Of a stretch of DNA of 64,000 bases, positions 2,757 through 64,000 are shown one piece after another. Each line of letters opens with the position of its first letter. The stretch's first letter is position 1. Source of the stretch: Rickettsiales bacterium (GTDB lineage: Bacteria > Pseudomonadota > Alphaproteobacteria > Rickettsiales > UBA3002); contig CBDFGU010000009.1 in NCBI GenBank assembly GCA_965247335.1, positions 1,328,504-1,392,503 on the forward strand, in the 5' to 3' direction. Both the position numbers and the translations under genes were made by a program. Below the pieces are notes generated by a model. It ran no database searches, was not told the origin of the DNA, and worked only from the letters and a program-made list of their open reading frames with translations.

Positions 2757-5700
2757 TTATGAATGCTTGAATCGCAGATCAAGCGTGTGCGGAAACTCCG
2801 CATTCTGTTCCATGGCGGGCAATGTCAGTTTGCCGGAAGTATGACCCATCGCTTCGAAACGGGATAATTTCCTGCCTTCCGCCTCGTTTTCATTGACGGG
2901 GAAAGTATCGTAACTGCGTCCACCGGGGTGGATGACATGGTAGGTGCAGCCGCCGAGGGAACGGTTCTGCAGCGTATCGACCAAGTCGAATACCAGCGGC
3001 GCATCAATCGGCAGTTTCGGGTGCAAGCTGGACGATTGTGCCCATGCTTTGAAGCGGACACCAGCCACGTGTTGATCTGCTACACCCGTCGCATGTAATG
3101 GGACGATATGCCCATTACAGGTTACGACATGGCGTTCGTCCATTGGGCCTGCCACCGTTACCTGAAGGCGTTCCACTGTCGCGTCCACCGAGCGGCTAAC
3201 GCCACCGCCTGCAGGTTCTTCACCCATCACCGGCCATGGTTCCAACGCCTGGTGCAACGTTAGTGTGACATCTCCCAATTGCACCTTGCCGGACTGGGAG
3301 AAGCGGAAAGCAAAGAATGGAGTGAACCATTCCGGCGCAAAGGCATAGCCACCTGTTTTCAGCACATGCAATACTTCTGCAAAATCCTGCTCAAGATAGT
3401 AGGGTAGCATGAATTTATCATGCAGCTGGGTGCCCCAGCGTTTCAGTGGATTAGTGTAGGGCGTTTTCCAGAAATGCGCAATGCAGGCGCGGATCAGCAA
3501 ACTTTGCAACAAATTCATTTGCGGATGCGGTGTCATCTCGAAACCACGCATTTCGAGCAGGCCCAGCCGCCCGCGTTCACTATCAGGGCTATAGAGTTTA
3601 TCGATGCAGAATTCCGCACGGTGGGTGTTGCCGGTAAGGTCGACTAACAGGTTGCGTAGGAGGCGATCGACCAGCCACGGTGGTACATCGCCGCTCTCGG
3701 GGATCTGCTGGAACGCGATTTCCAGTTCATACATCGCGTCGTGCCGCGCTTCATCGATGCGCGGTGACTGGCTGGTCGGGCCGATATACATTCCAGCGAA
3801 CAGGTACGAAAGCGATGGGTGGTTCTGCCAGAAACTCACCAGCGAGCGTAACAGATCCGGCCGGCGCAGGAACGGGCTATCCGCGGGAATTGCCGCGCCC
3901 ATTACGATATGGTTGCCGCCACCCGTGCCGACGCGCCTGCCATCCAGCATGAATTTTTCAGCCGATAATCGCGCCAGTCGCGCCTGGGCATAGACTGTAT
4001 CCGTAATGGTTTTAAGTTCTTTCCACGTCGCGGCGGGCTGGATGTTGACCTCGATCACGCCCGGATCGGGCGTTACGGAGAAATTCGCGATCCGCGCGTC
4101 AACCACGGGTGTGTAGCCTTCAAGTACGACCGGAATTTTCAAAGCGCTCGCGACCGATTCGATAGCCGTGATCAACTCCAAGAAATGCTCTGCCCACGCT
4201 ACCGGCGGCAGGAACAGATGCAGTACGCCGCCGCGCACTTCAGCGCAGAGTGCGGAGCGGATGAGACCGTTACTGTCCTTGGCAAATACTTTATCATCCG
4301 CTTTGCTAGGCGCTGAAAATGCTTTTGTTAGCGTTGCATGACTTGGCAGTTTTTCTGGAACATCAAAAGCGCTGCGCTCCGGCACTATCTCTTTTTTTGC
4401 TTCCTTGGGCGAGGGCAGGCTGGCCAGTGGCAGGCGCAAGCCGATGGGTGAATCACCTGTCAGTAGCACGAGATACGGGCTTTTGAATTTCCATGCATTG
4501 CTGATCCAGCGCTGGCGTGTCGGCGAATAATGCAAGGGTAGCACATAGCCCACCGGTGCATTGAGATCCTTTTCCATCAGGGCCTGCAACCGTTCGCGCT
4601 CGGTTTTCTCGTAGACATCCGCCTTCATCATTTCATCGCTTAGGGGCAGCTTGTGTTCTTTCCACAAATAATATGGAGTATCCTCGCGAGCGGGCTGCAC
4701 ATAGGAACCGGGAATGCCCAAGGTTGTCGCTAGCGTAGTAATAAACTTCTCTGCGGTTGCCAGCGTGTGTTTGAGCGAGCCGTCGGGATCTGCCAATAAG
4801 GCGATATCGCGCCAGATTATTTCACCGTCCGTGCGCCAGAAACACGGCATTGCCCAGCGTGGCAGGATCTCGCCGGGATACCATTTGCCTTGCGTGAACA
4901 TCGGCAATCCGCCGGGGGCGAATTGATCGCGTAACCGTGCGGACAGATTTTTCCCGAGCGCTTTTTTCTCGCCGCCCAGTGCAGAGTAATGCCATGCGTC
5001 ATGCTCGCGGTCATCAAGGGATACGAATGTCGGCTCGCCGCCCATGGTGAGCCGTACATCCTGCGTTGCAAGGCTTTTATCTACCTTGGTGCCCAATGCG
5101 TCGATCGCTTTCCATTGCGCATCCGTATAAGGTTTGGTCACGCGGGGTGCTTCGACGATGCGGGTGATGGTCATCTGGTGGTCGAGGGTCGCGGTCACCC
5201 CTTCTTCCAGCGTGCCGGTAACGGGAGCAGCACTCGACGGATTCGGCGTGCAGCAGAGCGGAATATGGCCTTCGCCCGTGAACAAACCCGAAGTAGGGTC
5301 CAGCCCGATCCAGCCGGCGCCGGGCAAATAAATTTCTGTCCAGGCGTGCAGGTCGGTGAAATCGACATCCGTGCCGGAAGGCCCGTCCAGTGATTTTACA
5401 TCCGCCGCGAGCTGGATGAGGTAACCAGAAGCAAAGCGCGTCGCCAAACCCAGATGCCGGATTGCCTGACACAGGAACCATGCCATGTCGCGACAGGAAG
5501 CGCTGCCGCGTTCCAGCGTTTCCTCACAGGTCTGTACCCCGGGTTCGAGGCGCACGACATAGGTGAGGCTCTGGTTTAGTTGCTGATTGATGGAAACGAG
5601 GAAATCGATGATGCCTTGTTCCTTGCGATCGATTTTTTTGAGCCATGCAGCGAGGCCTGAACCTTTTTCCTTAATCTCGAGATACGGTGCCAGTTCATCC

Positions 5701-6032
5701 TTGAGCTCCTGCGTGTAAGCGAAGGGAAAACTCTTGGCGTAATCCTCTAGAAAGAAGTCGAACGGGTTATACGCGCGAATCTCCGTCAATAGGTCCACCT
5801 CGATCCGGAAATCTTTCACCTTGTTCGGAAACACGACCTTGGCCAGAAAATTCCCGAATGGATCCTGCTGCCAGTTGATGAAGTGCTCTTTCGGCTCGAT
5901 CTTGAGGGCGTACGATTGAATGATGCCGCGCGTGTGTGGGGCCGGGCGCAAGCGGATGGTCTGCATCCCGAGCGCGGTCGGCCGGTCGTACCGGTAATGG
6001 GTCAGGTGGTGTAATGCGGCGGTGATACTCAT
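2757..6032 (-). CDS. Large transglutaminase-family protein (N-terminal Bact_transglu_N plus transglutaminase core, DUF2126-type C-terminal region)
   Basis: 1091-aa ORF. N-terminus MSITAALHHLTHYRYDRP...RLRPAPH. Cys-His-Asp core motifs GSASCRDMAWF, DLHAWTEIYLPGAGWIGLDPTSG. The long C-terminal region matches the pattern of DUF2126-type proteins. Confidence 0.85.
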   Translation of the reverse strand: MSITAALHHLTHYRYDRPTALGMQTIRLRPAPHTRGIIQSYALKIEPKEHFINWQQDPFGNFLAKVVFPNKVKDFRIEVDLLTEIRAYNPFDFFLEDYAKSFPFAYTQELKDELAPYLEIKEKGSGLAAWLKKIDRKEQGIIDFLVSINQQLNQSLTYVVRLEPGVQTCEETLERGSASCRDMAWFLCQAIRHLGLATRFASGYLIQLAADVKSLDGPSGTDVDFTDLHAWTEIYLPGAGWIGLDPTSGLFTGEGHIPLCCTPNPSSAAPVTGTLEEGVTATLDHQMTITRIVEAPRVTKPYTDAQWKAIDALGTKVDKSLATQDVRLTMGGEPTFVSLDDREHDAWHYSALGGEKKALGKNLSARLRDQFAPGGLPMFTQGKWYPGEILPRWAMPCFWRTDGEIIWRDIALLADPDGSLKHTLATAEKFITTLATTLGIPGSYVQPAREDTPYYLWKEHKLPLSDEMMKADVYEKTERERLQALMEKDLNAPVGYVLPLHYSPTRQRWISNAWKFKSPYLVLLTGDSPIGLRLPLASLPSPKEAKKEIVPERSAFDVPEKLPSHATLTKAFSAPSKADDKVFAKDSNGLIRSALCAEVRGGVLHLFLPPVAWAEHFLELITAIESVASALKIPVVLEGYTPVVDARIANFSVTPDPGVIEVNIQPAATWKELKTITDTVYAQARLARLSAEKFMLDGRRVGTGGGNHIVMGAAIPADSPFLRRPDLLRSLVSFWQNHPSLSYLFAGMYIGPTSQSPRIDEARHDAMYELEIAFQQIPESGDVPPWLVDRLLRNLLVDLTGNTHRAEFCIDKLYSPDSERGRLGLLEMRGFEMTPHPQMNLLQSLLIRACIAHFWKTPYTNPLKRWGTQLHDKFMLPYYLEQDFAEVLHVLKTGGYAFAPEWFTPFFAFRFSQSGKVQLGDVTLTLHQALEPWPVMGEEPAGGGVSRSVDATVERLQVTVAGPMDERHVVTCNGHIVPLHATGVADQHVAGVRFKAWAQSSSLHPKLPIDAPLVFDLVDTLQNRSLGGCTYHVIHPGGRSYDTFPVNENEAEGRKLSRFEAMGHTSGKLTLPAMEQNAEFPHTLDLRFKHS

Positions 6033-6115
6033 GGTTTTTTATATCCGACTATGAAATACTTGCATAGGCACAGTAAACTACTAGGCTTCGTAAGACATCA
6101 ATATAATCTTTTGCC

Positions 6116-7996
6116 GTGTCGGAGTACTATTTGTTCACGATTCCCCCGCTGACGAGCGATATTCTGGTGTTGAGCCTTGATGGCGAAAGCTCGCCTTCGA
6201 TCAACATCAATTTGTCGCAGAACTACCTTGGTAGCCATTCCCAGGGCTGGGGTTTCGGCTGGTATCCGGGTGACGAACAATCCGCGATGGTTACCAAGGA
6301 TCCTGCCGCACGCAATACACAAGTGCTGATGGATGCGCTGACCGATTGGGCGCATTTCCGTTCGACCGTGTTCTTCTGCAAGGTGCGGGGCGCTAGCAAA
6401 GGCTACAGCCTCAAAGAAACACAGCCTTTTTCCCGCAGTTTCGCCGGCCGTGACTGGTTGTTCATGCATAATGGCGATGTCGACAAGGTCGAACTTGAAA
6501 AGCTGCATGGTAAAAAGAACCGTGTCTTTGAGCCCATCGGTAACACGGATTCGGAACTCGCGTTCTGTAATTTCCTCTCGCTGTTACAGGAGGGTGATAC
6601 ACGCAAACTTTCCGATGTCGCACCCGAGATGTTGCATGCGTGGTGGAAGCGCCTCGATATGCTCGGCAGTGCCGATATGACGCTTTCGGATGGCGATAGC
6701 GTGGTCTGCTTCCATGGCACCCAATCGCCGAAGGCCATGTACTATATGCGAATCCAGCCACCAGATAATCAGGAATTGTACATTGCCGATGCCGCGCAGA
6801 TCAGCCTCAGCAACCCACGCGATACCTACCGTACTGCGCTGATGGTGACGTCCATGCCCTTCGCTTCGGGTAACTGGTTCGAAATGCTGCCGGGGCAAAT
6901 GATCATTGCGCGTCGCGGCACGATCGTCTGGGACAGTGCGCATGGGCATGCAAAACAGGTTACACTGGCAATTCCGCATGCCGTGCAACCGCAGGCACAG
7001 CAACCTGTAGTGCTGCAACCCAACTTCATGGCGCAGGCGCAGGCCGAGCAGTCGCAGGAGCATGTGCTCAACGCACGGGCGATGTCGCAGACACCGGAAG
7101 GTGCACCGCTGGCGTATCGCGTATTCGAAGTGAAACATACAACGCATTATGAATACAGCGAACCGGTGGAGCACAGTACGCATGTGTTCCGCCTGCAGCC
7201 GACGGACGATCCAATCCAAGAAGTCGTTTCGTCGAAACTGGCGATTTCGTCCGTTTCCGAGGAGATTTTGTTCGAGGATGTATTCGGCAACCAGGCGATT
7301 CACTGTATCATTGATAAGTCCTATACCCAGCTGACGGTGGAGGCTACCAGCCGGGTCAAGATTTTCGCCGCGCCACCGGATGATCATAGTCTGTCACGCC
7401 GCCGTACCTCGATTCCACTCGCCTGGATGCCATGGCAACGCCAGATGATGATGCCGTATCTGCTACCGGCGGAGTTGCCCGAATCGCAACTCACGGAACT
7501 GACCGAGTATGCGATGAGTTTCGTCAAGCGAAACGATTACAATCTGCTCAAGACGCTCGAGGACATGAATGTCAGCATTTATCGCGATTATAAATACGTG
7601 TCGGGCAGTACTTCCATTAATACGACCCCCTTTGAGGTCTACACGTCACGTAACGGCGTGTGTCAGGATTTTGCCAACCTTCTGATCTGCCTTACCCGAC
7701 TTCTAAGTATTCCGGCGCGTTACCGCATGGGTTACATCTACACTGGCGCCAGCTATTCTAATAAAATCCAGTCAGATGCTTCGCATGCATGGGCGGAAGT
7801 CTATTTGCCGTATGTCGGCTGGCGCGGTTTTGATCCGACCAATGGCTGCATGGTGACGCAGGATCATATCCGTGTCGCATGCGGCCGTAATTATGGCGAT
7901 GCGACACCGACCTCTGGGACTATTTATAAAGGCGGCGGTACAGAAACATTGACAGTTGATGTGAAAATGACGGAAATCGTGGATGCATTGACATAA
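6116..7996 (+). CDS. Fusion protein: class-II (Ntn) glutamine-amidotransferase-like domain (YafJ-like) plus Bact_transglu_N plus transglutaminase core
   Basis: GTG start, with an in-frame TAA 12 nt upstream. N-terminal ~290 aa carry YafJ-type motifs ([31 protein letters not shown]). A Q/A-rich linker follows, then [11 protein letters not shown]...FRLQP and a Cys-His-Asp core ([32 protein letters not shown]). Confidence 0.8.
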
Positions 7997-34083: not shown

Positions 34084-35358
34084 ATGCAAGGGACCATGAA
34101 TAGGAAACGTTCAAAGCGCTGGATTATCTGGTTGCTGGTGCTGCTTATGGTCGCTGCTGTGGCGTATTATTTCTTTACCAAACCCAAGGACGACAAGGGA
34201 AATAAAAAACCGCAGGCACCCGTCGTGTTGGCGCCGACCGTACGCAAGGATGTTCCAGTCTATCTCAATGGTCTCGGCACCGTACAGGCTTATAACACCG
34301 TTACCGTACACTCACAGGTGGATGGTCAGCTGATGGTGATCAAATTCCGCGAAGGACAGAACGTCAAAGCCGGGGAAGTACTGGCGCAGATCGACCCTCG
34401 CACGTACAAGGCGGCATTGGATCAGGCAGTGGCGACTAAGGCCAAGGATACAGCTAACCTTGCTAATGCTCAGGTGGACGTCAAACGCTACCAGAAACTC
34501 GGTGATAGCGTGCCGCGCCAGACGCTCGATACACAGGTGGCGACGGTGCGACAGTTGACCGCGCAGGTGGCGGCGGATCAGGCAGCGATCGACAGTGCCG
34601 CAACGCAACTGAGCTACACAACGATTGTTGCCCCGATCTCGGGCCGCACCGGATTGCGCCAAGTGGATGTCGGCAATGTGATTCATAGCGGTGATACGAA
34701 TGGTCTCGTCGTCATTACACAAGTACAGCCGGTGGCGGTGCTATTCAGCCTGCCGCAACAGAATCTCGGTGCCATCAATCAACAGACGAATGAAGGAAAA
34801 ACGCTGCAGGTGGATGCGCTGGCCTCGGACAATTCGACGCTCATTGATCATGGCAAATTGCTGCTAGTGGATAACGAAATCGACCAGACGACCGGAACGA
34901 TCAAATTGAAGGCTGCATTCCCGAATGTGCAGAATCAGCTCTGGCCGGGCGGGTTCGCCAATACGCGCCTGCTATTGACGACCCAGCAAAATGTGCTGAC
35001 CGTGCCGAGCGTTGCGGTCCAACAGGGGCCCAAAGGCGCCTATGTTTTCCTGTACCAAGCCGCGGATAGTACGGTTGCGATGAAACCGGTGACCATCAGT
35101 GCGACACAAAGCACGGACTCCGTGGTAACGGATGGTCTGACCGATGGGGATCAGGTCATCGTTGACGGCATGGCGAAGCTGCAGGATAAGAGCAAGGTGA
35201 CGGTCGGCGGTGACAAAAACGCTGCAGCCACGAATAGTGGCAAGAAAGACAATGCGAGTAAGGATGCCGCAGCAACCGATGCTGGCGGTACGCCATCGGA
35301 TGCCGACAAGACCGGTGGCGGCACTGAAAAGAAACACCACCATAAGCGCGAGAACTAG
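34084..35358 (+). CDS. mdtA: RND efflux periplasmic adaptor (membrane fusion protein), MdtA-like
   Basis: N-terminal TM anchor (WIIWLLVLLMVAAVAYYFF). Lipoyl/beta-barrel MFP motifs (GTVQAYNTVTVHSQVDG, AQIDPR, YTTIVAPISGRTG). Low-complexity K/D/A/G-rich tail. Directly upstream of two RND permease genes. Confidence 0.85.
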   Translation: MQGTMNRKRSKRWIIWLLVLLMVAAVAYYFFTKPKDDKGNKKPQAPVVLAPTVRKDVPVYLNGLGTVQAYNTVTVHSQVDGQLMVIKFREGQNVKAGEVLAQIDPRTYKAALDQAVATKAKDTANLANAQVDVKRYQKLGDSVPRQTLDTQVATVRQLTAQVAADQAAIDSAATQLSYTTIVAPISGRTGLRQVDVGNVIHSGDTNGLVVITQVQPVAVLFSLPQQNLGAINQQTNEGKTLQVDALASDNSTLIDHGKLLLVDNEIDQTTGTIKLKAAFPNVQNQLWPGGFANTRLLLTTQQNVLTVPSVAVQQGPKGAYVFLYQAADSTVAMKPVTISATQSTDSVVTDGLTDGDQVIVDGMAKLQDKSKVTVGGDKNAAATNSGKKDNASKDAAATDAGGTPSDADKTGGGTEKKHHHKREN

Positions 35359-56936: not shown

Positions 56937-57007
56937 CTTTCGTGACGGCAAAGGCGCTTAAAAGGAATTCGGCTCGCCTTACCCGTAAAAAAGAGCTATA
57001 TATCTCC

Positions 57008-59539
57008 ATGCAGCAGCGCTGGTTAAATCTATTGACTATTATGGTATTGACGGTAGTGGCCACGCTGGCGCTACTCGGCATGGCCGGCTGGTTCACGCAT
57101 TCCCTGCTGCTGGTACAGGTTCAGCCCGGATATCCGATCTTCCAGTTCAATACCGCTTTTTGCTTCCTGCTCGATGTGCTTGGTTTTCATGCGTTGCTAG
57201 AGCAGCGGCGCAGCGCGGCTTTCGTGGCGCTCAGTATCGTTTTCGTGATGGCGCTGTTGACCCTGATCGAGCATCTCAGCGGCGTGGATTTTGGCGTCGA
57301 CACGCTTTTCATGGAACCGTTCACGACCGTCTACTCCAAAGCGCCGGGGCGAATCAATTTCAATACGGATGTTGGATTGCTAATGCTCAGTGGTGGAATG
57401 CTGCTGTGTATTCGCCGTCATGTATCGCAGCGCTGGGCCGTGATTACGGCAATCTGCGCCTGTCTGGCATTCGCCGTGGCTGCCGTACCGCTGCTGGGCT
57501 ATGCGGGTGGATTGCAGGAAGCCTACCGCGCCGGGACGTTCACCCGCATGTCGTTACCCGCCTCGATCTGCCTGATCCTGTTCAGTGCCTTGCTGATGGC
57601 GTATGTGGCGCTGCGCTCGCCACTCGTTTACCGTTGGCTGCCGTTGCCCATGTTCCTTGGTCTTGTAATGGTTTCTTTTGCAGCGGCGACGGCGGTACGC
57701 ATGCATGAAGAGCTGCAAATCACGCAATCCATTCAAGACGCAGCGAATGAGCAGGCAACCTATTACAGCGACCGGTTGAAGAATACCTACGATGCATTGA
57801 ATCGGATCGGCATGCGCTGGGAAGCCGCAGGCGGTACACCGGAGAAGCTCTGGCAAGCGGACGCGGAATCCTACATTCATGATCTGCCGTTCCTGAACGG
57901 TATCTCGTGGGTCGATGAACAGAGCCGCTTGCGCTGGATCGCCCCGCTGAAGGGCCGAGAGTTCTTGATCGGCCGGGTATTGTCAGATGATCCGGTGCGT
58001 GGTGCAGCGTTGAAAGCTGCCCGTGAAACGCAACACGCGCAGGTGACGCCGCCATTAATATTCCTCGATGGTACCGGCATCGGTTTCGTCTATATCCGCC
58101 CGTTGAAATTAACTGGGGAGCATGGCGGGACAATCACCTCCGGCATCCGCCTGCATGATTTTTTTGCCGATCTCCTCAAACCTATTTCGGAAACTGGCTT
58201 CCAATACACGTTGCGTCACGGTTCCGACATTATTTTTACCACGCGTCCATCGACGCCGCAGAACGACGACGACATTCGGCAGGCAAATGCGACTATCGAC
58301 AACGTGAACGACAGTTACCTGCTGACGTTGTATCCGATGCCGGCGTATATTGCGAGCCGGCATACTTCCGTGCCCGCGGTGGTATTTGCCGGGGGCAGCC
58401 TTATGGCAGCATTGGCCGCGCTTGCTGCGCTGCTTTTGCTGCGTGAACGCCAGCAAGCATGGCTGTTGCGCGAAAGCGAACAATCCTTCCGCCTGGCCAT
58501 GGAATATTCGCCGATCGGCATGGCGCTGGTCTCACCCGAGGGTAGGTGGCTGCGAGTGAACCAGGCTCTGTGCGAAATCGTTGGCTATGCGTCCGTTGAG
58601 CTTCTGGCGATTGATTTCCAGACCATCACCCATCCCGACGACCTTGTAAGCGACCTTGACTATGTACAGAAGGTCATCGCCGGCGAAATCAAAAGCTATG
58701 CGATGGAAAAACGCTATTTGCACAAGGATGGACATGTTATCCCGATCCTGCTCAGCGTCTCGCTCATCCGCAATGCCGATGGTTCACCGAAATATTTCAT
58801 CTCGATGATTCAGGACATCAGCGAACGTGAACGTTTCGTCGAGCAGCTGCAGCAGACGAATGCGGAGCTGGAGCAGTTCGCTTACGTTGCCAGCCATGAT
58901 TTGCAGGAACCCTTGCGTATGGTGACAAGCTTCGTCGGCCTGCTGGGCAAGACCTACGGCAACAAGCTCGACCTGCAGGCCCAGGAATACATCACCATCG
59001 CGGTCGACGCATCGAAACGCATGCAGTTGCTGATCAGCGACCTGTTGGAATATGCGCGCCTTGGCAAGGACAGCCAGTTGCGCGTGCGGATCGATTGCAA
59101 CGTCGAAATGCAGCATGTCGTCCATAACCTGAATGCGGCAATCAAAGGCGCTCAGGCTTTGGTGAGTGTGGATGAACTACCGGAAATCATGGGCAACCCG
59201 GTAGAATTCCTGCGGCTCATGCAGAACCTGATGGGGAATGGCATCAAGTTCCGCCGGGAAGGCGTGACACCGGTCATCCGGGTACGCGCAGTACGCGAGG
59301 ACGATTTCTGGGTCTTCACCGTGCGGGATAACGGTATCGGAATGAAGCCCGAATACTATGAGCGCGTGTTCCAGCCCTTCAAACGCCTGCATACGCAGCA
59401 GGAGTACCAAGGCAGCGGGATTGGCCTTGCGGTGTGCCGTAAGATAGTGGAGAATTTCGGCGGCAGGATCAGCGTCGAATCCATCATGGGCGAAGGCTCG
59501 ACCATGCGGTTCACCGTACCGGTCATACCAGAGGAGTAA
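57008..59539 (+). CDS. Membrane sensor histidine kinase (multi-TM N-domain, extracytoplasmic sensor region, PAS, HisKA, HATPase_c)
   Basis: Start taken at MQQRWLNLL; a GTG at 56942 is possible. ~7 hydrophobic segments, then a second TM after a ~230-aa loop. PAS (FRLAMEYSPIGMALV...KRYLHKDGHVIP). H-box ASHDLQEPLRMV. GSGIGLAVC. Confidence 0.85.
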   Translation: MQQRWLNLLTIMVLTVVATLALLGMAGWFTHSLLLVQVQPGYPIFQFNTAFCFLLDVLGFHALLEQRRSAAFVALSIVFVMALLTLIEHLSGVDFGVDTLFMEPFTTVYSKAPGRINFNTDVGLLMLSGGMLLCIRRHVSQRWAVITAICACLAFAVAAVPLLGYAGGLQEAYRAGTFTRMSLPASICLILFSALLMAYVALRSPLVYRWLPLPMFLGLVMVSFAAATAVRMHEELQITQSIQDAANEQATYYSDRLKNTYDALNRIGMRWEAAGGTPEKLWQADAESYIHDLPFLNGISWVDEQSRLRWIAPLKGREFLIGRVLSDDPVRGAALKAARETQHAQVTPPLIFLDGTGIGFVYIRPLKLTGEHGGTITSGIRLHDFFADLLKPISETGFQYTLRHGSDIIFTTRPSTPQNDDDIRQANATIDNVNDSYLLTLYPMPAYIASRHTSVPAVVFAGGSLMAALAALAALLLLRERQQAWLLRESEQSFRLAMEYSPIGMALVSPEGRWLRVNQALCEIVGYASVELLAIDFQTITHPDDLVSDLDYVQKVIAGEIKSYAMEKRYLHKDGHVIPILLSVSLIRNADGSPKYFISMIQDISERERFVEQLQQTNAELEQFAYVASHDLQEPLRMVTSFVGLLGKTYGNKLDLQAQEYITIAVDASKRMQLLISDLLEYARLGKDSQLRVRIDCNVEMQHVVHNLNAAIKGAQALVSVDELPEIMGNPVEFLRLMQNLMGNGIKFRREGVTPVIRVRAVREDDFWVFTVRDNGIGMKPEYYERVFQPFKRLHTQQEYQGSGIGLAVCRKIVENFGGRISVESIMGEGSTMRFTVPVIPEE

Positions 59540-59542
59540 GCA

Positions 59543-60007
59543 ATGGCAGTGATGGCAATGAAGGACAGGAATCGACCCGTGCGTTTTCTGCTCGTGGAGG
59601 ATAATTACGGCGATGTGCTGTTGACCCAGCACGCGTTCGCCAAGGCGACGATGGCCAACGAGATCACAGTCGCGCGCGATGGCGAGATCGCGATGGCGAT
59701 GCTGCGGCGCGAAGGTGAGTATGCCGCCGTGCCGCTGCCGGATCTCGTGCTGCTCGACCTCAATTTACCGAAGATGGACGGCAAAGAAGTGCTGGCAGCC
59801 ATCAAGGGTGACAGCGCATTGCGGCAGTTGCCGGTCATCATCCTGAGCAGTTCGCGCGCTGAGCAGGATGTGGCTAAAAGCTACGACCTCAATGCCAACA
59901 GCTACCTTATCAAGCCGATCGACCTCACGGAATTCTATACGGTGGTGCAGGCGATCGAGAGTTTCTGGATGAATCTTGTCATCCTGTCCGGTGAGGAAAC
60001 GCGATGA
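59543..60007 (+). CDS. Single-domain response regulator (receiver only, Rcp1-like)
   Basis: FLLVEDNYGD, phospho-acceptor LVLLDLNLPKMDG, ILSSS, YLIKP. No output domain. Begins 3 nt after the kinase stop. Confidence 0.85.
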   Translation: MAVMAMKDRNRPVRFLLVEDNYGDVLLTQHAFAKATMANEITVARDGEIAMAMLRREGEYAAVPLPDLVLLDLNLPKMDGKEVLAAIKGDSALRQLPVIILSSSRAEQDVAKSYDLNANSYLIKPIDLTEFYTVVQAIESFWMNLVILSGEETR

Positions 60008-60699
60008 GCGAGAACGACCCGTTCGCCACGATGCGCGAATTCGTCTATCTCGTTTCGCACGATTTGCGCGCACCATTACGGGCCGCTGGCAGCATCAGCA
60101 AGATTGTGCTCGAGACCTATGGCGGCACGCTGGATGCGCAGGGCAACGAATATCTTTCGATCATCGCCAACGAAGCCAAGCGGGCGCAAGAAATGCTGCA
60201 GGGGCTGCTTGAATATTCGCGCCTCGATACGATGGCGAAATCCATCACCACGCGGATCGAGGTGGCGCGGATATTCGAGCATTGCACGGTGATCCTGGCG
60301 GATGAAATCAAGCAGGGCAACGTGACACTGACGGCAGGCACCTTACCGGTCATCCAGGCCGATGCCGAACAGTTCATGCAATTGCTACTCTACCTTTTCG
60401 AGAACGCTTTAAAGTTTCACCGGGCGGAGGTACCGGCTGTGGTGTGCTTTGATAGTAGCGAAGACGAGACGCATTGGCACTTCAGCGTTACCGATAATGG
60501 GATCGGCATCGACATGCTCTACCGCGAAAAGGCATTTACGCTTTTCCGCCAGCTCAATGTACAGGGTACCTATCCCGGCATCGGCGTGGGGCTGACGCTG
60601 GCGCGCAAAATCGTCGAGCGCCATGGCGGAATGATCTGGATCGAAGATAACCCAAAAAATGCTGGAACATCAGTACATTTCACCTTAGCCAAACCCTGA
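60004..60699 (+). CDS. Sensor-less soluble histidine kinase (HisKA plus HATPase_c only)
   Basis: 231 aa. H-box VSHDLRAPLRA starts at residue ~17. N-box ENALKF, DNGIGI, GIGVGLTLA. ATGA overlap with the preceding receiver gene. Confidence 0.85.
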   Translation: MSENDPFATMREFVYLVSHDLRAPLRAAGSISKIVLETYGGTLDAQGNEYLSIIANEAKRAQEMLQGLLEYSRLDTMAKSITTRIEVARIFEHCTVILADEIKQGNVTLTAGTLPVIQADAEQFMQLLLYLFENALKFHRAEVPAVVCFDSSEDETHWHFSVTDNGIGIDMLYREKAFTLFRQLNVQGTYPGIGVGLTLARKIVERHGGMIWIEDNPKNAGTSVHFTLAKP

Positions 60700-60757
60700 G
60701 CATATTAAGGGAATTTTAAAGATTTCCGACCTATACTGGGTGAAAAGGTAAAATGCC

Positions 60758-61156
60758 ATGCAGGCTGTTCTGGAGAAAAACATCAACATCCTCATGATCG
60801 AGGATTGCAAAACCGATGTGCTGCTGTTCCGGCATTTGCTTGGCGATGTGCAGAAACGCTGCACGATCACTGATGTCCCGCGCATGATCGACGCCTTCAA
60901 ACAGATCGACAACATGTTTTACGATGTCATTTTGCTCGACCTTAACCTGCTCGACCTCGACGGGGTGGCGAACATCGCCGCAATCAAGGCCGAATGCCCG
61001 TTCACGCCGGTGGTCATCTACTCCGGCCGCAACGATGCGAAACTGCAGAAAGAAGCGCAAATGGTCGGCGCGGCGGGATACATTGTCAAGGGCGAGACCA
61101 ATGCCGTTGAAGTGCAGGCGACCATCAGCCGTGCGCTTCAGCACGTGGTCGCCTAG
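60758..61156 (+). CDS. Single-domain response regulator (receiver only)
   Basis: ILMIEDCKTD, phospho-acceptor VILLDLNLLDLDG, VVIYSG, YIVKG. 132 aa. Confidence 0.8.
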   Translation: MQAVLEKNINILMIEDCKTDVLLFRHLLGDVQKRCTITDVPRMIDAFKQIDNMFYDVILLDLNLLDLDGVANIAAIKAECPFTPVVIYSGRNDAKLQKEAQMVGAAGYIVKGETNAVEVQATISRALQHVVA

Positions 61157-61533
61157 CGTCGGCGCAATCTATAAACCCATCCGCTGATCGCGCTTGCCAG
61201 CGCACCGCTACCTAGTAATGGTAACCACCAACCTTCCATATGCGGAATGCTGAAGGCATGCATCAACCCATCGATGCTGAGCGCCGTCATCACCAGCAAG
61301 GCGGAAACCGCGCGGTGCAGTTCCTCCATCAACCAGCTGAAACGCTTCACAAGGCGGCGATAGAAGACAAGCAACAACAGTGCGGCAGCGAGCAGCACAT
61401 AACCCTCGTACAATATTTCCGGCCGTGCCAGCTGATAGATGGGTGGCAGAAAGATGAGATGCAGACCCCACCAAATCAGTGCAACAATGAGTAAGGCAAA
61501 AGCCAGGGAGGCGCAAAGGTACGGCGTATTCAT
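61153..61533 (-). CDS. Small integral membrane protein (about 4 TM), unknown function
   Basis: Start taken at MNTPYLCASLAFALLIVALIWW, forming an ATGA overlap with the upstream His-rich gene stop. Four hydrophobic segments. The ORF-track start at 61665 lies inside the upstream gene. Confidence 0.55.
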   Translation of the reverse strand: MNTPYLCASLAFALLIVALIWWGLHLIFLPPIYQLARPEILYEGYVLLAAALLLLVFYRRLVKRFSWLMEELHRAVSALLVMTALSIDGLMHAFSIPHMEGWWLPLLGSGALASAISGWVYRLRRR

Positions 61534-62564
61534 GGTGTCCTCACCGTTGGCGGGCCCTGTTCGACGCGTTCGACCCACGGCGCTGGCGCCGGATTCGCGC
61601 CAAACGCCTGCATCGCGGCGCCGGTTACCGGGGCGATAATGCTGCGGCTGTTCATTGCATCCCATTGCTGCGCGATGCCCGGCGCGAGCGCGCGGCTGCC
61701 GAGCAGCAGCGTGTTGCTGATGATGGCGCCGATGGATTTGTTGCGGATGATACGCGCGTAGCTGCTGTCATGCCCGCTGAGTTTCTGCGTCACGACGCCG
61801 ATGGGGAAGGCATACAGGTTCCACATCACGGCCTGCGGCAAATGCTGCATCTCACGATCATACATGGCGTGCGCTTTCTCGATGACTTCCGGCGCATCAC
61901 TGCCAAAACCATGCCGCTTGCCCCAGTGAGCGGCGGCGGCATTCGCACCGGTGCAGAAAAATGGGGCAGTGATCGGCTCAATGACGCGGCGAAGGCCCTC
62001 CATCAGCGAGGGGAACAGACGCTGCGTGGCAATGGTAAGCGGCACGGCGGCGGCATCGCCAATGATCTCGCCTTTTAGGTAATGCAGCGCTTCGCTGCGA
62101 TACGTCTTCCAGTCGATAGTGTTCCAGTTGAGGTTTTTCCAGCTGAACTTCCGAGGGGCATGGATGTGCGGTTCGCCATGGGTATGGTTATGTGGTTCAG
62201 GCGGAACATCGGCCACGAATTTCGCTTTGCGTGGCGTGGGTTTCTTGCCAGCCCCGGTAGGGAACGGCGATGGGAAAACCGGATGGTTATGGCCTTCATG
62301 CCCGTGATGATCATGACCATGATGATCGTGCCCATGATGGCCGTTATCGTGCGTACCGTGATGGTGCGATGGATCGCTGCAGCCAACCTGCACACCGAAC
62401 AAAGCGGCAATGGAAGGCGCGATGATCATATCGTTCAGCCCGCAGGAAAGTGCGTGGTTGATAGTATAGGCAATATCCTCCGCACGCTGGGCGGAATTTT
62501 TATCCGCTTCGCGTGCGGCAGGCGGTTTTAACATGACATTCACTGGTTCGCGCATCGTTTCCAC
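61530..62564 (-). CDS. Histidine-rich protein of unknown function (candidate Zur-regulated metal-binding protein)
   Basis: 344-aa ORF (GTG 62564 or ATG 62555). His tract SHHHGTHDNGHHGHDHHGHDHHGHEGHNH (about 62283-62369) and a second PEPHNHTHGEPHIH. Zur-box-like palindrome immediately upstream. Confidence 0.65.
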   Translation of the reverse strand: METMREPVNVMLKPPAAREADKNSAQRAEDIAYTINHALSCGLNDMIIAPSIAALFGVQVGCSDPSHHHGTHDNGHHGHDHHGHDHHGHEGHNHPVFPSPFPTGAGKKPTPRKAKFVADVPPEPHNHTHGEPHIHAPRKFSWKNLNWNTIDWKTYRSEALHYLKGEIIGDAAAVPLTIATQRLFPSLMEGLRRVIEPITAPFFCTGANAAAAHWGKRHGFGSDAPEVIEKAHAMYDREMQHLPQAVMWNLYAFPIGVVTQKLSGHDSSYARIIRNKSIGAIISNTLLLGSRALAPGIAQQWDAMNSRSIIAPVTGAAMQAFGANPAPAPWVERVEQGPPTVRTP

Positions 62565-62566
62565 GT

Positions 62567-62583
62567 TTGTTACAGTATAACAA
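62567..62583. promoter_or_regulatory. Zur-box-like palindrome 1 (TTGTTACAGTATAACAA)
   Basis: The core TGTTACAgTATAACA matches the widespread Zur consensus core TGTTATA-N-TATAACA at 13 of the 14 specified positions. Abuts the start of the His-rich gene. Confidence 0.55.
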
Positions 62584-62623
62584 TTTTGTTCTTTACATCG
62601 CGCAGGCTGCGCAGTAAAGCATT

Positions 62624-62640
62624 TAGTTATAGTGTAACAA
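62624..62640. promoter_or_regulatory. Zur-box-like palindrome 2 (TAGTTATAGTGTAACAA)
   Basis: Inverted near-copy of box 1 (reverse complement TTGTTACACTATAACTA). 12 of the 14 specified positions match the Zur core. Lies 24 nt upstream of the zur-like ATG (62664). Confidence 0.5.
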
Positions 62641-62663
62641 ATAACTGCTTCTGCGAGGTCTTT

Positions 62664-63059
62664 ATGGCGCGCCCATCTTCATTATCTGCCCCGGCAAGCG
62701 AGCTGGTGCTGAAGCTGCTGCGTAAGGCCCGCGACCCGCTTACGGCCTACGAATTGCTCGAGAAACTCAAGCGTTCCGGTATCAAAAGCGCGCCGATCAT
62801 CTACCGTGCGCTCGATGTGTTGATAAAGGAAGGCAGCGCGCACAAAATCAAGGAATTGGGCGCCTATGTGGCCTGCGACTGCGCGCACACCCACGATCAT
62901 GCGCTTTCGGTACTCACGGTGTGCGGCGACTGCCATGAAGTAGAAGAGTTGCACAATCATTCGGTTATCCACCAGCTCGAGAATCTGCGCAAGGCTGGTG
63001 TGCGTTTGCAAAAGCATGCGGTAATCGAACTTCCTATCACTTGCAACGCCTGCGCCTGA
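62664..63059 (+). CDS. zur: Fur-family metalloregulator, Zur-like
   Basis: Start taken at MARPSSLS. Winged helix (LTAYELLEKLKRSGIKSAPIIYRALDVLIKEGSAHKI). Metal sites CDCAHTHDH, CGDCHEVEE and C-terminal CNAC. Length and layout match short Zur proteins. Confidence 0.8.
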   Translation: MARPSSLSAPASELVLKLLRKARDPLTAYELLEKLKRSGIKSAPIIYRALDVLIKEGSAHKIKELGAYVACDCAHTHDHALSVLTVCGDCHEVEELHNHSVIHQLENLRKAGVRLQKHAVIELPITCNACA

Positions 63060-63068
63060 GGATTTTTT

Positions 63069-63707
63069 ATGCTGCATATCACGAACCTCGAAGCAGGCTA
63101 CGATGGCAAAAGCGGTCGTGACGCTACCGGAGCTTTCACTCAAATCCGGCGAACATTGCCTGATCCTCGGTCAGTCCGGTTCGGGGAAGACGACCTTGCT
63201 GTATGCCATTGGCGGGCTGCTTAAGCCCTTAAAAGGTTCCATCATCCTCGGCAACACCAATATTGCTGCACTGAATGCTGCATCCCAGGATGCGTTCCGC
63301 GGAAGCATATCGGCATTATTTATCAGGCGCTCCACATGGCCACAGCAGTCTCGGTGCGCGATAATATCCTGCTCGCACAGTACGCAGCAGGGGTGCAGCA
63401 AAATCCTGCTAAGGCGGATGCGCTACTGGCCCAACTCGGACTTTCCGCGCATGCCGACAAGAAGCCGCATACCTTGAGCCACGGCCAGCAGCAGCGTGTG
63501 GCCATCGCCCGCGCGGCAATCAACGGCCCACAGTTGATTCTCGGGGATGAGCCGACCTCGGCACTCGATGATGTCTCTTGCGGCGCGGTCATGGAACTCC
63601 TTTTATCAACGGCGCAGGCCGCAGGCTCCAGTCTGGTCATTGCAACACACGATGCGCGCATCCGGAAGTACTTCACACAAACAATTACGCTGGGGAGCGC
63701 TGCATGA
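63069..63707 (+). pseudogene. MacB/LolD-type ABC transporter ATP-binding gene interrupted by two frameshifts
   Basis: Three in-order pieces. Frame 0: MLHITNLEAGYDGK (63069-63110). Frame 1: AVVTLPELSLKSGEHCLILGQSGSGKTTLL...QDAFRG (to ~63303). Frame 0 again: KHIGIIYQALHMATAVSVRDN...LSHGQQQRVAIARA...LILGDEPTSALD (63303-63707). The shifts sit at ggcAAAAgcg (63108-63111, one extra A) and cgcggAAgcat (~63301-63305, one base missing). Confidence 0.75.
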
Positions 63708-64000
63708 ACACCTTATCCCTGAGCATTGCCTACCTGCGCCACAAGCTGCTGGGCACCTTCCTAAGCTTGCTGACGTTTGCCTCGGGCATTGCGGTCATTG
63801 TGGCGCTGCTGCTGGTCAATGCACAGCTGAACAACGAGTTCACGAAGAACCTGCACGGCATCGATCTCGTGGTCGGCGGCAAGGGCAGCCCGCTGCAGCT
63901 GATCCTTTCAAGCGTGTTCCATCTCGATATACCTACCGGAAATATCCCGCTTGAGGAAGCGCAGAAGCTGGAACAGCATCCGTTGGTGAAAAGTGTGATT
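63704..64000 (+). CDS. FtsX-like ABC transporter permease (MacB/LolCE type); 3' end outside the window
   Basis: My own translation from ATG 63704 (ATGA overlap with the ATPase stop): MNTLSLSIAYLRHKLLGTFLSLLTFASGIAVIVALLLVNAQLNNEFTKNLHGIDLVVGGKGSPLQLILSSVFHLDIPTGNIPLEEAQKLEQHPLVKSVI. That is TM1 followed by a periplasmic MacB-like domain. Open to the window end. Confidence 0.8.
   Translation, partial: MNTLSLSIAYLRHKLLGTFLSLLTFASGIAVIVALLLVNAQLNNEFTKNLHGIDLVVGGKGSPLQLILSSVFHLDIPTGNIPLEEAQKLEQHPLVKSVI

Follow-up and report, generated by a model that had tools for sequence, protein, structure and literature searches.

The 64,000-nt stretch of DNA analysed here (the window; positions 1,328,504 to 1,392,503 of contig CBDFGU010000009.1 in the Rickettsiales bacterium assembly GCA_965247335.1) carries close to its right-hand end what is probably a Zur-controlled bidirectional region. 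On one side lies zur, encoding a 131-residue Fur-family zinc uptake regulator (62664-63059, plus strand). On the other side, a two-gene operon runs in the opposite direction and encodes a His-rich protein of 341 residues, FAM (61530-62555, minus strand), and a small membrane protein of 126 residues (61153-61533, minus strand) whose start overlaps the FAM stop. We consider it likely that this divergent operon is derepressed when zinc is scarce and that FAM, with its membrane partner, handles zinc; its zinc binding, its location and the direction of any transfer are what we infer. FAM belongs to a new, undescribed protein family, while the Zur operators and the autoregulated zur are of a known kind. 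All coordinates are window positions unless a related locus is named.

Two palindromes lie between the divergent genes. Box 1 (TTGTTACAGTATAACAA, 62567-62583, with the core TGTTACAGTATAACA at 62568-62582) ends 11 nt before the FAM start codon (ATG at 62555), and box 2 (TAGTTATAGTGTAACAA, 62624-62640, with the core AGTTATAGTGTAACA at 62625-62639) ends 23 nt before the zur ATG at 62664. Both have a 7-1-7 architecture; as inverted copies they are 94% complementary, and as direct copies, spaced 57 bp apart, they are 83% identical. The Zur-box core is described as TGTTATA-N-TATAACA within a palindrome of ~15-23 bp, and the gamma-proteobacterial consensus as GAAATGTTATA-N-TATAACATTTC (PMC2706843, PMC4219657). 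When the window was scanned with TGTTAYANTRTAACA, allowing at most one mismatch, only boxes 1 and 2 matched (no mismatch in box 1, one in box 2), against 0.02 matches expected, and none of 100 shuffles of the window reached two matches. A third site at 35043 had three mismatches, which is at chance level, and was discarded. An earlier note on this DNA, made from its letters alone, had picked out two Zur-box-like palindromes at this place, and both their sequences and their coordinates were correct. The same note gave a spacer of 99 bp and a His-rich protein of 344 residues. Those figures hold if translation begins at the alternative GTG at 62564, but the likely start is the ATG at 62555, giving 341 residues and a spacer from zur to FAM of 108 bp. 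We prefer the ATG because it yields the protein recorded publicly as P0001 and lines up with the starts of its homologues.

We compared 33 loci with FAM relatives from a one-genome-per-species collection, and five more obtained by exact-protein look-ups. In 357 kb of related loci, the box pattern with at most one mismatch was found 30 times against 0.16 expected, and almost all of these boxes stand just upstream of FAM, zur, znu or COG0523 genes. Gene-proximal boxes equivalent to box 1 occur in L018, L032, L022/L023, L026, L034, L036 and others, and a zur-proximal box at the distance of box 2 is present in L032, L018, L022/L023, L026, L034 and L036. Seven divergent loci (L032, L018, L022, L023, L026, L034 and L036) keep one order, namely zur ATG, ~20 nt, box, CTTTACA, ~30 nt, box, 10-25 nt, ATG, with a box-to-box spacing of 52-59 bp. 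A single box is found in L014, L020 and L021. Relatives at 50% identity retain both the divergent layout and the overlapping small gene. The palindromes are thus supported as putative Zur operators, because they have the gamma-proteobacterial core and spacing, keep their place across many related genomes and are found in front of COG0523 and znu genes as well. Box 1 probably covers the transcription start or the 5' leader of the FAM gene, and box 2 is likely the operator through which the zur-ABC transporter operon is autoregulated.

An inverted repeat, CTTTAC-N17-GTAAAG, lies between the boxes (62591-62619; arms CTTTACATCGC and GCGCAGTAAAG, 11 nt, 82% complementary). The earlier note had called it hairpin-like. 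The repeat is present, but only its outer arms are conserved, as CTTTAC-N17/18-GTAAAG in the window, L034 and L036, and these resemble promoter elements; the zur-proximal CTTTACA is also conserved in L032, L018, L022, L023, L026 and L009. The inner GC-rich arms are not kept, which speaks against a structural hairpin. A reading of the inner repeat as an RNA or a terminator was set aside, as Rfam gave nothing in the window and the inner arms are unconserved. The outer arms look like two overlapping divergent promoters, with -35-like hexamers TTTACA on the plus strand and TTTACT on the minus strand. A rightward promoter would be TTTACA-N17-TAAAGC and a leftward one TTTACT-N17-TAAAGA, each firing into the box over its own start site. 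This reading comes from inspection, by which TTTACA-N17-TAnnnn was seen between the boxes. Under the model that we favour, zinc-loaded Zur would bind both 7-1-7 operators when zinc is sufficient. At box 2 it would shut off the promoter of the zur operon, which encodes Zur itself, a ZrgC-like ATPase and a MacB/FtsX-type permease, joined in relatives by DUF3299 proteins; at box 1 it would do the same to the promoter or leader that serves FAM and its partner. Zinc scarcity would lift the repression of both operons.

The identity of the regulator bears directly on this model. The zur product matches Pfam PF01475 (FUR) with E=8.5e-7 and 29.6 bits (cut-off 23.1 bits). Its best NCBIfam model is PRK11639, the Zur equivalog (7.9e-17), ahead of PerR (6e-5) and Fur (2e-3). 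Against all PDB sequences, the only Fur-family matches were the Zur proteins of Xanthomonas (7DH7, 9e-17) and E. coli (4MTD, 9e-12). The two CxxC pairs of the structural Cys4 zinc site are present as C87-G-D-C90 and C127-N-A-C130. Homologues are named "Fur family zinc uptake transcriptional regulator" by JGI, and the close ones all come from uncultured Alphaproteobacteria or from metagenome-assembled genomes (MAGs) labelled Rickettsiales. More distant orthologues, at 39-44% identity, come first in operons with products that match the Pfam families ABC-3 (ZnuB) and ZnuA; in L010, L012 and L015 the order is zur followed by znuC-znuB-znuA. The zur-like gene reported in the earlier note is borne out by the NCBIfam ranking, by its sole solved relatives and by the znuCBA operons that its orthologues head. 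That the regulator is Zur, with predicted zinc-dependent binding and repression, is therefore supported.

The gene could instead encode a Fur, a Mur or another paralogue, with palindromes that answer to another metal. Fur-family specificity cannot be fixed from sequence alone, the NCBIfam Zur score (61.5 bits) stays below the curated cut-off of 167, and other FAM paralogues carry Fur-like boxes. We nevertheless regard a regulator for another metal as highly improbable, since the two solved Fur-family relatives detected are both Zur proteins, znuCBA operons begin with orthologues of this gene, and COG0523 genes too have the box in front of them. The box itself, TGTTAYA-N-TRTAACA, has the Zur core and spacing (PMC2706843), unlike the TGAGAAT-N-ATTCTCA of other family members.

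A role of FAM in the zinc-limitation response is supported by comparative genomics, from which its zinc responsiveness is predicted, because the family adjoins zur or follows a box in most loci. Thirty loci extend far enough upstream to be scored: zur adjoins FAM in 17 of them, and 19 have a Zur box within ~100 nt of the FAM operon start. In L010, znuB and znuA flank the FAM gene; in L015, FAM precedes zur-znuCBA. Copies linked to a box are also richer in His: the best 30-residue His count averages 12.9 in them and 8.3 in unlinked copies (one-sided Mann-Whitney p=0.005, uncorrected for phylogeny). The earlier suggestion that this could be a new zinc-limitation component thus stands, with FAM as a good candidate given its linkage to zur, znu and COG0523 and the conservation of the boxes. 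In L032, whose Zur is 80% identical to that of the window, two boxes control a COG0523 (CobW-type) GTPase gene, which is followed by His-rich, apparently frameshifted open reading frames (ORFs) and a long-form FAM (3004-6327).

FAM itself gave no match to Pfam, NCBIfam or PDB sequences. Scans of FAM, its long forms, its fusion forms and the small partner against Pfam and NCBIfam returned only a sub-threshold DUF6587 match (E=0.019) and a match of the His tract to ZrgA, and the FAM family profile found only His-tags and noise among PDB sequences. The earlier note had found no family for this protein, and the Pfam, NCBIfam, PDB sequence and fold searches led to the same result. A word-indexed search found 108 homologues. 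Run against 1.84 billion cluster representatives (50% identity), the family profile detected 247 sequences at E<=1e-3, of which 221 were at E<=1e-10; the window protein scores 356 bits. Since nearly all of the 247 matches are strong and there is no distant fringe, the family is small and sharply bounded. Its named members are all hypothetical proteins from alphaproteobacterial or Rickettsiales-labelled MAGs of uncultured organisms. Members have ~300 residues, and some reach ~570 through unannotated N-terminal extensions.

The family alignment has eighteen invariant columns, grouped in three motifs, and the window protein carries all of them. Motif 1, AEDIAYTINHALSC...D (family form AYT[IL]NH..x.C...D), contains D27, Y30, T31, N33, H34, C38 and D42. 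Motif 2, GExxGD..AVPLT..Q (family form AVPxT), contributes E163, D167, T174 and Q178, and motif 3, Y.xExxHLPQA..W (family form ExxH[LF]PQAxxW), contributes E235, H238 and W245. Both His tracts quoted in the earlier note were found in the minus-strand ORF. The His-rich segment is an insertion between motifs 1 and 2 that ranges across the family from 8 to 157 residues and from 0 to 29 His, with at least five His in 56% of members. The loop of the window protein, with about 90-100 residues and 20 His, is among the longest. As judged from the alignment, the His tract varies in length and is accessory, not a conserved motif.

An AlphaFold2 (AF2) model of FAM was built from the 108-sequence alignment. 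It has a predicted local distance difference test score (pLDDT) of 78.8 and a predicted template modelling score (pTM) of 0.71, with pLDDT >90 for 164 residues. The predicted fold is all-alpha, with six long helices (21-53, 149-180, 182-214, 222-259, 266-290 and 292-317) and a disordered His loop (59-148). Searching the PDB with Foldseek gave no fold match (best E=2.1, template modelling (TM) score ~0.1); matches to BAR-domain and PspA folds were discarded as long-helix noise. When the invariant residues are placed on the AF2 helices at 100 degrees per residue, they fall within ~80-degree arcs on helices 1, 2 and 4. The first 45 residues form a conserved polar helix with D27, Y30, T31, N33, H34 and C38. 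Family-averaged hydropathy has four moderate peaks, and at the variable positions of helices 1, 2, 4 and 5, which are neutral to hydrophobic, the charged fraction is 0.10-0.19, between the values typical of soluble and of membrane proteins.

The partner gene is joined to FAM by an ATGA at 61530-61533, which holds both the FAM TGA stop and the partner ATG. Two segments of the protein are strongly hydrophobic and two marginally so, which gives three to four hydrophobic helices. These features agree with the ATGA-coupled protein of about four transmembrane (TM) helices described in the earlier note. Its invariant residues are D88, H92, H98, E100 and G101-W102-W103, most of them in a motif IPHxEGWW, and its homologues form 8 clusters in 5.8 billion proteins. 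Its AF2 model (pLDDT 80.9) had no fold match in the PDB by Foldseek (best E 8.4; TM scores ~0.1-0.3 across both models). The partner also adjoins FAM in L019, L022, L023, L034 and L036; its gene precedes FAM within a shared Zur-boxed operon in L022 and L023.

These features suggest how FAM could handle zinc. The His-rich loop would capture Zn2+ and pass it to a ladder of invariant polar residues on three helices (D27/T31/H34/C38/D42, E163/D167/T174/Q178 and E235/H238/W245). In short-loop members, helices 1 and 2 would form a direct hairpin, placing D42, E163 and E235 at one level; the next levels would be C38/D167/H238, then H34/Q241, T31/T174/W245 and D27/Q178. Transfer would most likely take place at the cytoplasmic membrane, together with the small His/Asp/Glu membrane partner where it is present, and would end with zinc moved into the cell or handed to recipients.

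Several results weigh against this zinc-handling operon model, in addition to the low Zur score given above. A strict sigma-70 consensus scan of the spacer found no promoter there. The loop has at most two His in ~28% of FAM members. The polar ladder, which would be ~22 Å long and begin at the exit of the His loop, is read from helix periodicity and an AF2 summary. The partner occurs with FAM in 6 of ~36 loci, all from one clade, and is thus not essential to the function of the FAM family. In FAM no segment reaches a Kyte-Doolittle 19-residue mean of 1.6 (maximum 1.51), the best insertion energy on the translocon scale is approx. +6.6 kcal/mol, so that no TM helix passes, and there is no N-terminal signal peptide. 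A soluble cytoplasmic FAM is therefore quite possible.

Such a FAM could act as a zinc buffer or metallochaperone that holds scarce zinc and delivers it to clients without any transport, a role like that of His-rich COG0523, HypB and SlyD-type proteins; we hold this for the lesser possibility, though a serious one. Besides lacking a convincing TM segment and a signal peptide, FAM has helices of 25-38 residues that would suit a soluble bundle, a COG0523 gene co-occurs with it in L032 and L030, and most long forms have a ~270-residue N-terminal extension that is free of TM segments. A typical soluble surface, however, would carry more charges at the variable helix positions. Some homologues are tethered by a true TM segment (twelve long-form homologues have a clear one 25-45 residues before the FAM domain), and FAM is translationally coupled to a membrane protein with invariant His, Asp and Glu of its own. 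The ~22 Å ladder would also exceed what a single site needs. Three other ideas were considered and rejected. A lipoprotein, with G-C as lipobox and helix 1 as signal, does not agree with residues 20-45 being the most conserved, at pLDDT >90, nor with the absence of the Cys in some members. A classical multi-pass transporter is unsupported by the Kyte-Doolittle and translocon scales; the charge-poor variable positions keep membrane association open. The likeness of GDFA and ExGD to ZIP/UPF0016 motifs fails on spacing and has no hidden Markov model support.

FAM copies that lack Zur boxes offer a second line of comparison. Upstream of these copies, at 40-80 nt, stand 7-1-7 palindromes resembling Fur boxes, e.g. 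TGAGAATCATTCGCA and TGCGAGTAATTCGCA, with the pattern TGMGART-N-AYTCKCA. They were found at L007 5101, L008 5686, L011 5889 and 5913, L027 4481, and L002 5092 and 5114. As these sites had themselves supplied the pattern, counting them is circular; two loci retrieved later, L037 and L038, have perfect matches to the pattern in the expected place, TGAGAATAATTCGCA and the perfect palindrome TGAGAATGATTCTCA in L037 (4934 and 4959) and TGCGAGTTATTCTCA in L038 (4031). From these boxes, the FAM family appears to be generally under Fur-family metalloregulators, with its members answering to different metals. In four genomes, non-Zur copies stand directly upstream of hisB, hisH, a GNAT acetyltransferase gene, hisA, hisF and hisE (L006 1239-4958, L007 6977-9147, L027 6867-9924 and L038 6046-10060).

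One could also read FAM as an enzyme, or a protein of another sort, whose only tie to metal limitation is its expression, such as a metal-sparing isozyme or a dimetal enzyme of metallophore biosynthesis, with the loop incidental. E163, D167, E235-x-x-H238 and H34 on helices recall the ligands of helical dimetal enzymes, copies without Zur boxes precede hisB-hisH-hisA-hisF-hisE in the four loci just named, and members, like metallophore genes, stand under either Zur or Fur-like boxes. We judge this unlikely. The model matched no solved enzyme fold (Foldseek E=2.1, TM ~0.1), Pfam, NCBIfam and PDB gave no match, and no biosynthetic genes recur beside the Zur-linked copies. These copies gain metal-binding His, the opposite of known zinc-sparing paralogue pairs. 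A paralogue in the same genome, P0051, lacks the loop and keeps all putative ligands, which argues against a zinc-free replacement enzyme.

Uptake or trafficking proteins typically have members that answer to different metals. We tentatively raise the possibility that FAM, alone or with its partner, is a new structural class of transition-metal uptake or translocation protein, with paralogues specialised for different metals and each repressed by the corresponding Fur-family regulator: His-rich ones for zinc under Zur, His-poor ones for iron or manganese under a Fur/Mur-type box. If so, it would be a new importer family beside ZnuABC, ZIP, NRAMP and Zrg, so far found only in uncultured Alphaproteobacteria. 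More broadly, the presence of copies under Zur boxes and copies under Fur-like boxes suggests a general metal-starvation function.

Directly downstream of zur, an ABC ATPase of the ZrgC/PA4064 kind is encoded at 63069-63707 (plus strand, three ORF pieces, ABC_tran match). Relative to its intact 227-residue orthologue in L032, two single-base indels, both in A-runs (near 63111, GGCAAAAGCG, and near 63302, GGAAGCAT), split its reading frame in three. Either the assembly is wrong here or the gene is a pseudogene; should the frameshifts be real, the Zur-controlled transporter would be inactive in this genome. Elsewhere in the window, pairs of long same-strand ORFs overlap by ~90-140 nt (15-1220/1081-2694, 8013-9479/9388-10422 and 17697-18551/18413-19549), and these may be further frameshifted genes pointing to assembly indel errors. 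The ATG of a MacB/FtsX-type permease overlaps the ATPase stop (63704-64000, plus strand; weak MacB_PCD match), and the gene runs off the window end. Intact orthologous operons (L034, L036 and L032) encode ABC_tran, MacB_PCD plus FtsX, and one or two DUF3299 proteins; of these the window holds the ATPase and the permease N-terminus, and a DUF3299 gene would fall beyond its end. The composition equals the ZrgBCE part of the Vibrio Zrg system (PMC9817125) and PA4064-PA4066 (PMC8561739), in line with the MacB-type ABC transporter that the earlier note had placed downstream of zur.

Two relatives of this operon have additional features. In L034 (2697-3632) and L036 (2696-3640), a second DUF3299-type protein is fused to, or stands beside, a redoxin/AhpC-TSA domain, which is unusual for Zrg/PA4064-66-type systems. 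The zur-operon MacB/FtsX-type permease of L023 (3124-4428, minus strand) has a long His/Asp/Glu-rich insertion (EAHHHHDEHKEEAHEEHGHHDEHDHEKHADHDEDEHEAHEKHG). On the other side of the region, a histidine kinase/response-regulator cluster (56942-61156) ends convergently 0-3 nt from the partner gene, and no link to the zinc locus was seen. This cluster encodes an 865-residue PAS/HisKA kinase, receiver proteins of 154 and 132 residues, and a 231-residue kinase core.

Zur regulons have been the main route to new zinc-acquisition machinery, including ZinT, COG0523, ZrgA, PA4063 and ZepA. To these the present locus adds a family that has no annotated domain or solved relative, yet is consistently linked to zur, znuABC and COG0523. 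Its hosts are poorly known freshwater and host-associated Alphaproteobacteria, not yet cultivable. The regulatory part is ordinary, and it supplies a clean, portable reporter system.

How does the control region compare with known Zur operators? Like the znuA-znuCB boxes of E. coli and other gamma-proteobacteria, the boxes have the 7-1-7 core TGTTAYA-N-TRTAACA in AT-rich surroundings (PMC2706843, PMC4219657). They too lie between divergent zinc genes, here overlapping putative promoter regions, and the repressor belongs to the same Zur clade. The difference is that here there are two boxes 57 bp apart, one per direction, and that zur heads a transporter operon. The published alphaproteobacterial Zur motifs GTAATGTAATAACATTAC and GATATGTTATAACATATC do not have the 5-nt spacer between TGTTA and TAACA (PMC2706843), unlike the boxes here, which also do not match the even palindromes of the Agrobacterium and Rhodobacter groups (PMC2706843).

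Among His-rich proteins of Zur regulons, the earlier note had likened FAM to PA4063 of Pseudomonas aeruginosa. The analogy holds for the kind of transporter that accompanies it: PA4063 is Zur-regulated and FAM is predicted to be, both have disordered His-rich loops and go with a MacB-like ABC transporter and a DUF3299-type protein, and neither has characterised homologues (PMC8561739). It does not extend to homology with PA4063 or ZrgA. PA4063 is periplasmic and folds as an alpha/beta-sandwich of a noncanonical ferredoxin-like kind (PMC8561739), whereas FAM shares no sequence similarity with it, lacks a signal peptide, is predicted to be all-alpha and also occurs with ZnuABC or alone beside zur. 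In the Zrg system, ZrgA (DUF2796) and ZrgD (DUF2607) are, like FAM and its partner, His-rich and small unknown accessories of a Zur-regulated permease/ATPase/DUF3299 transporter (PMC9817125). FAM is not homologous to ZrgA (its sole match to ZrgA in NCBIfam, E=0.086, lies within the His tract), nor is the partner, which has no Pfam match, to ZrgD. The FAM and partner genes are divergent from the transporter operon, whereas the ZrgA and ZrgD genes lie inside theirs.

FAM resembles ZIP and CDF transporters in that conserved His, Asp and Glu stand on the helices flanking a disordered His-rich loop of variable length. It has no Pfam Zip or Cation_efflux match, and Foldseek matched it to no transporter structure in the PDB; its six long helices are weakly hydrophobic, in contrast to the 8 or 6 clear TM helices of ZIP and CDF proteins. 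COG0523 zinc metallochaperone GTPases (ZigA/YeiR/YciC) are Zur-regulated, as FAM is predicted to be, and often His-rich, and one shares the L032 operon with a long-form FAM. A P-loop, a CxCC motif and CobW domains are all absent from FAM. The cyanobacterial ZepA is unrelated in sequence and differs in being secreted (signal peptide, PEP-CTERM), with two domains and a His triad. It is a precedent for FAM in another respect: there, too, a narrow zinc-handling family was recognised by its Zur sites and its zinc-related neighbourhood (PMC10957091).

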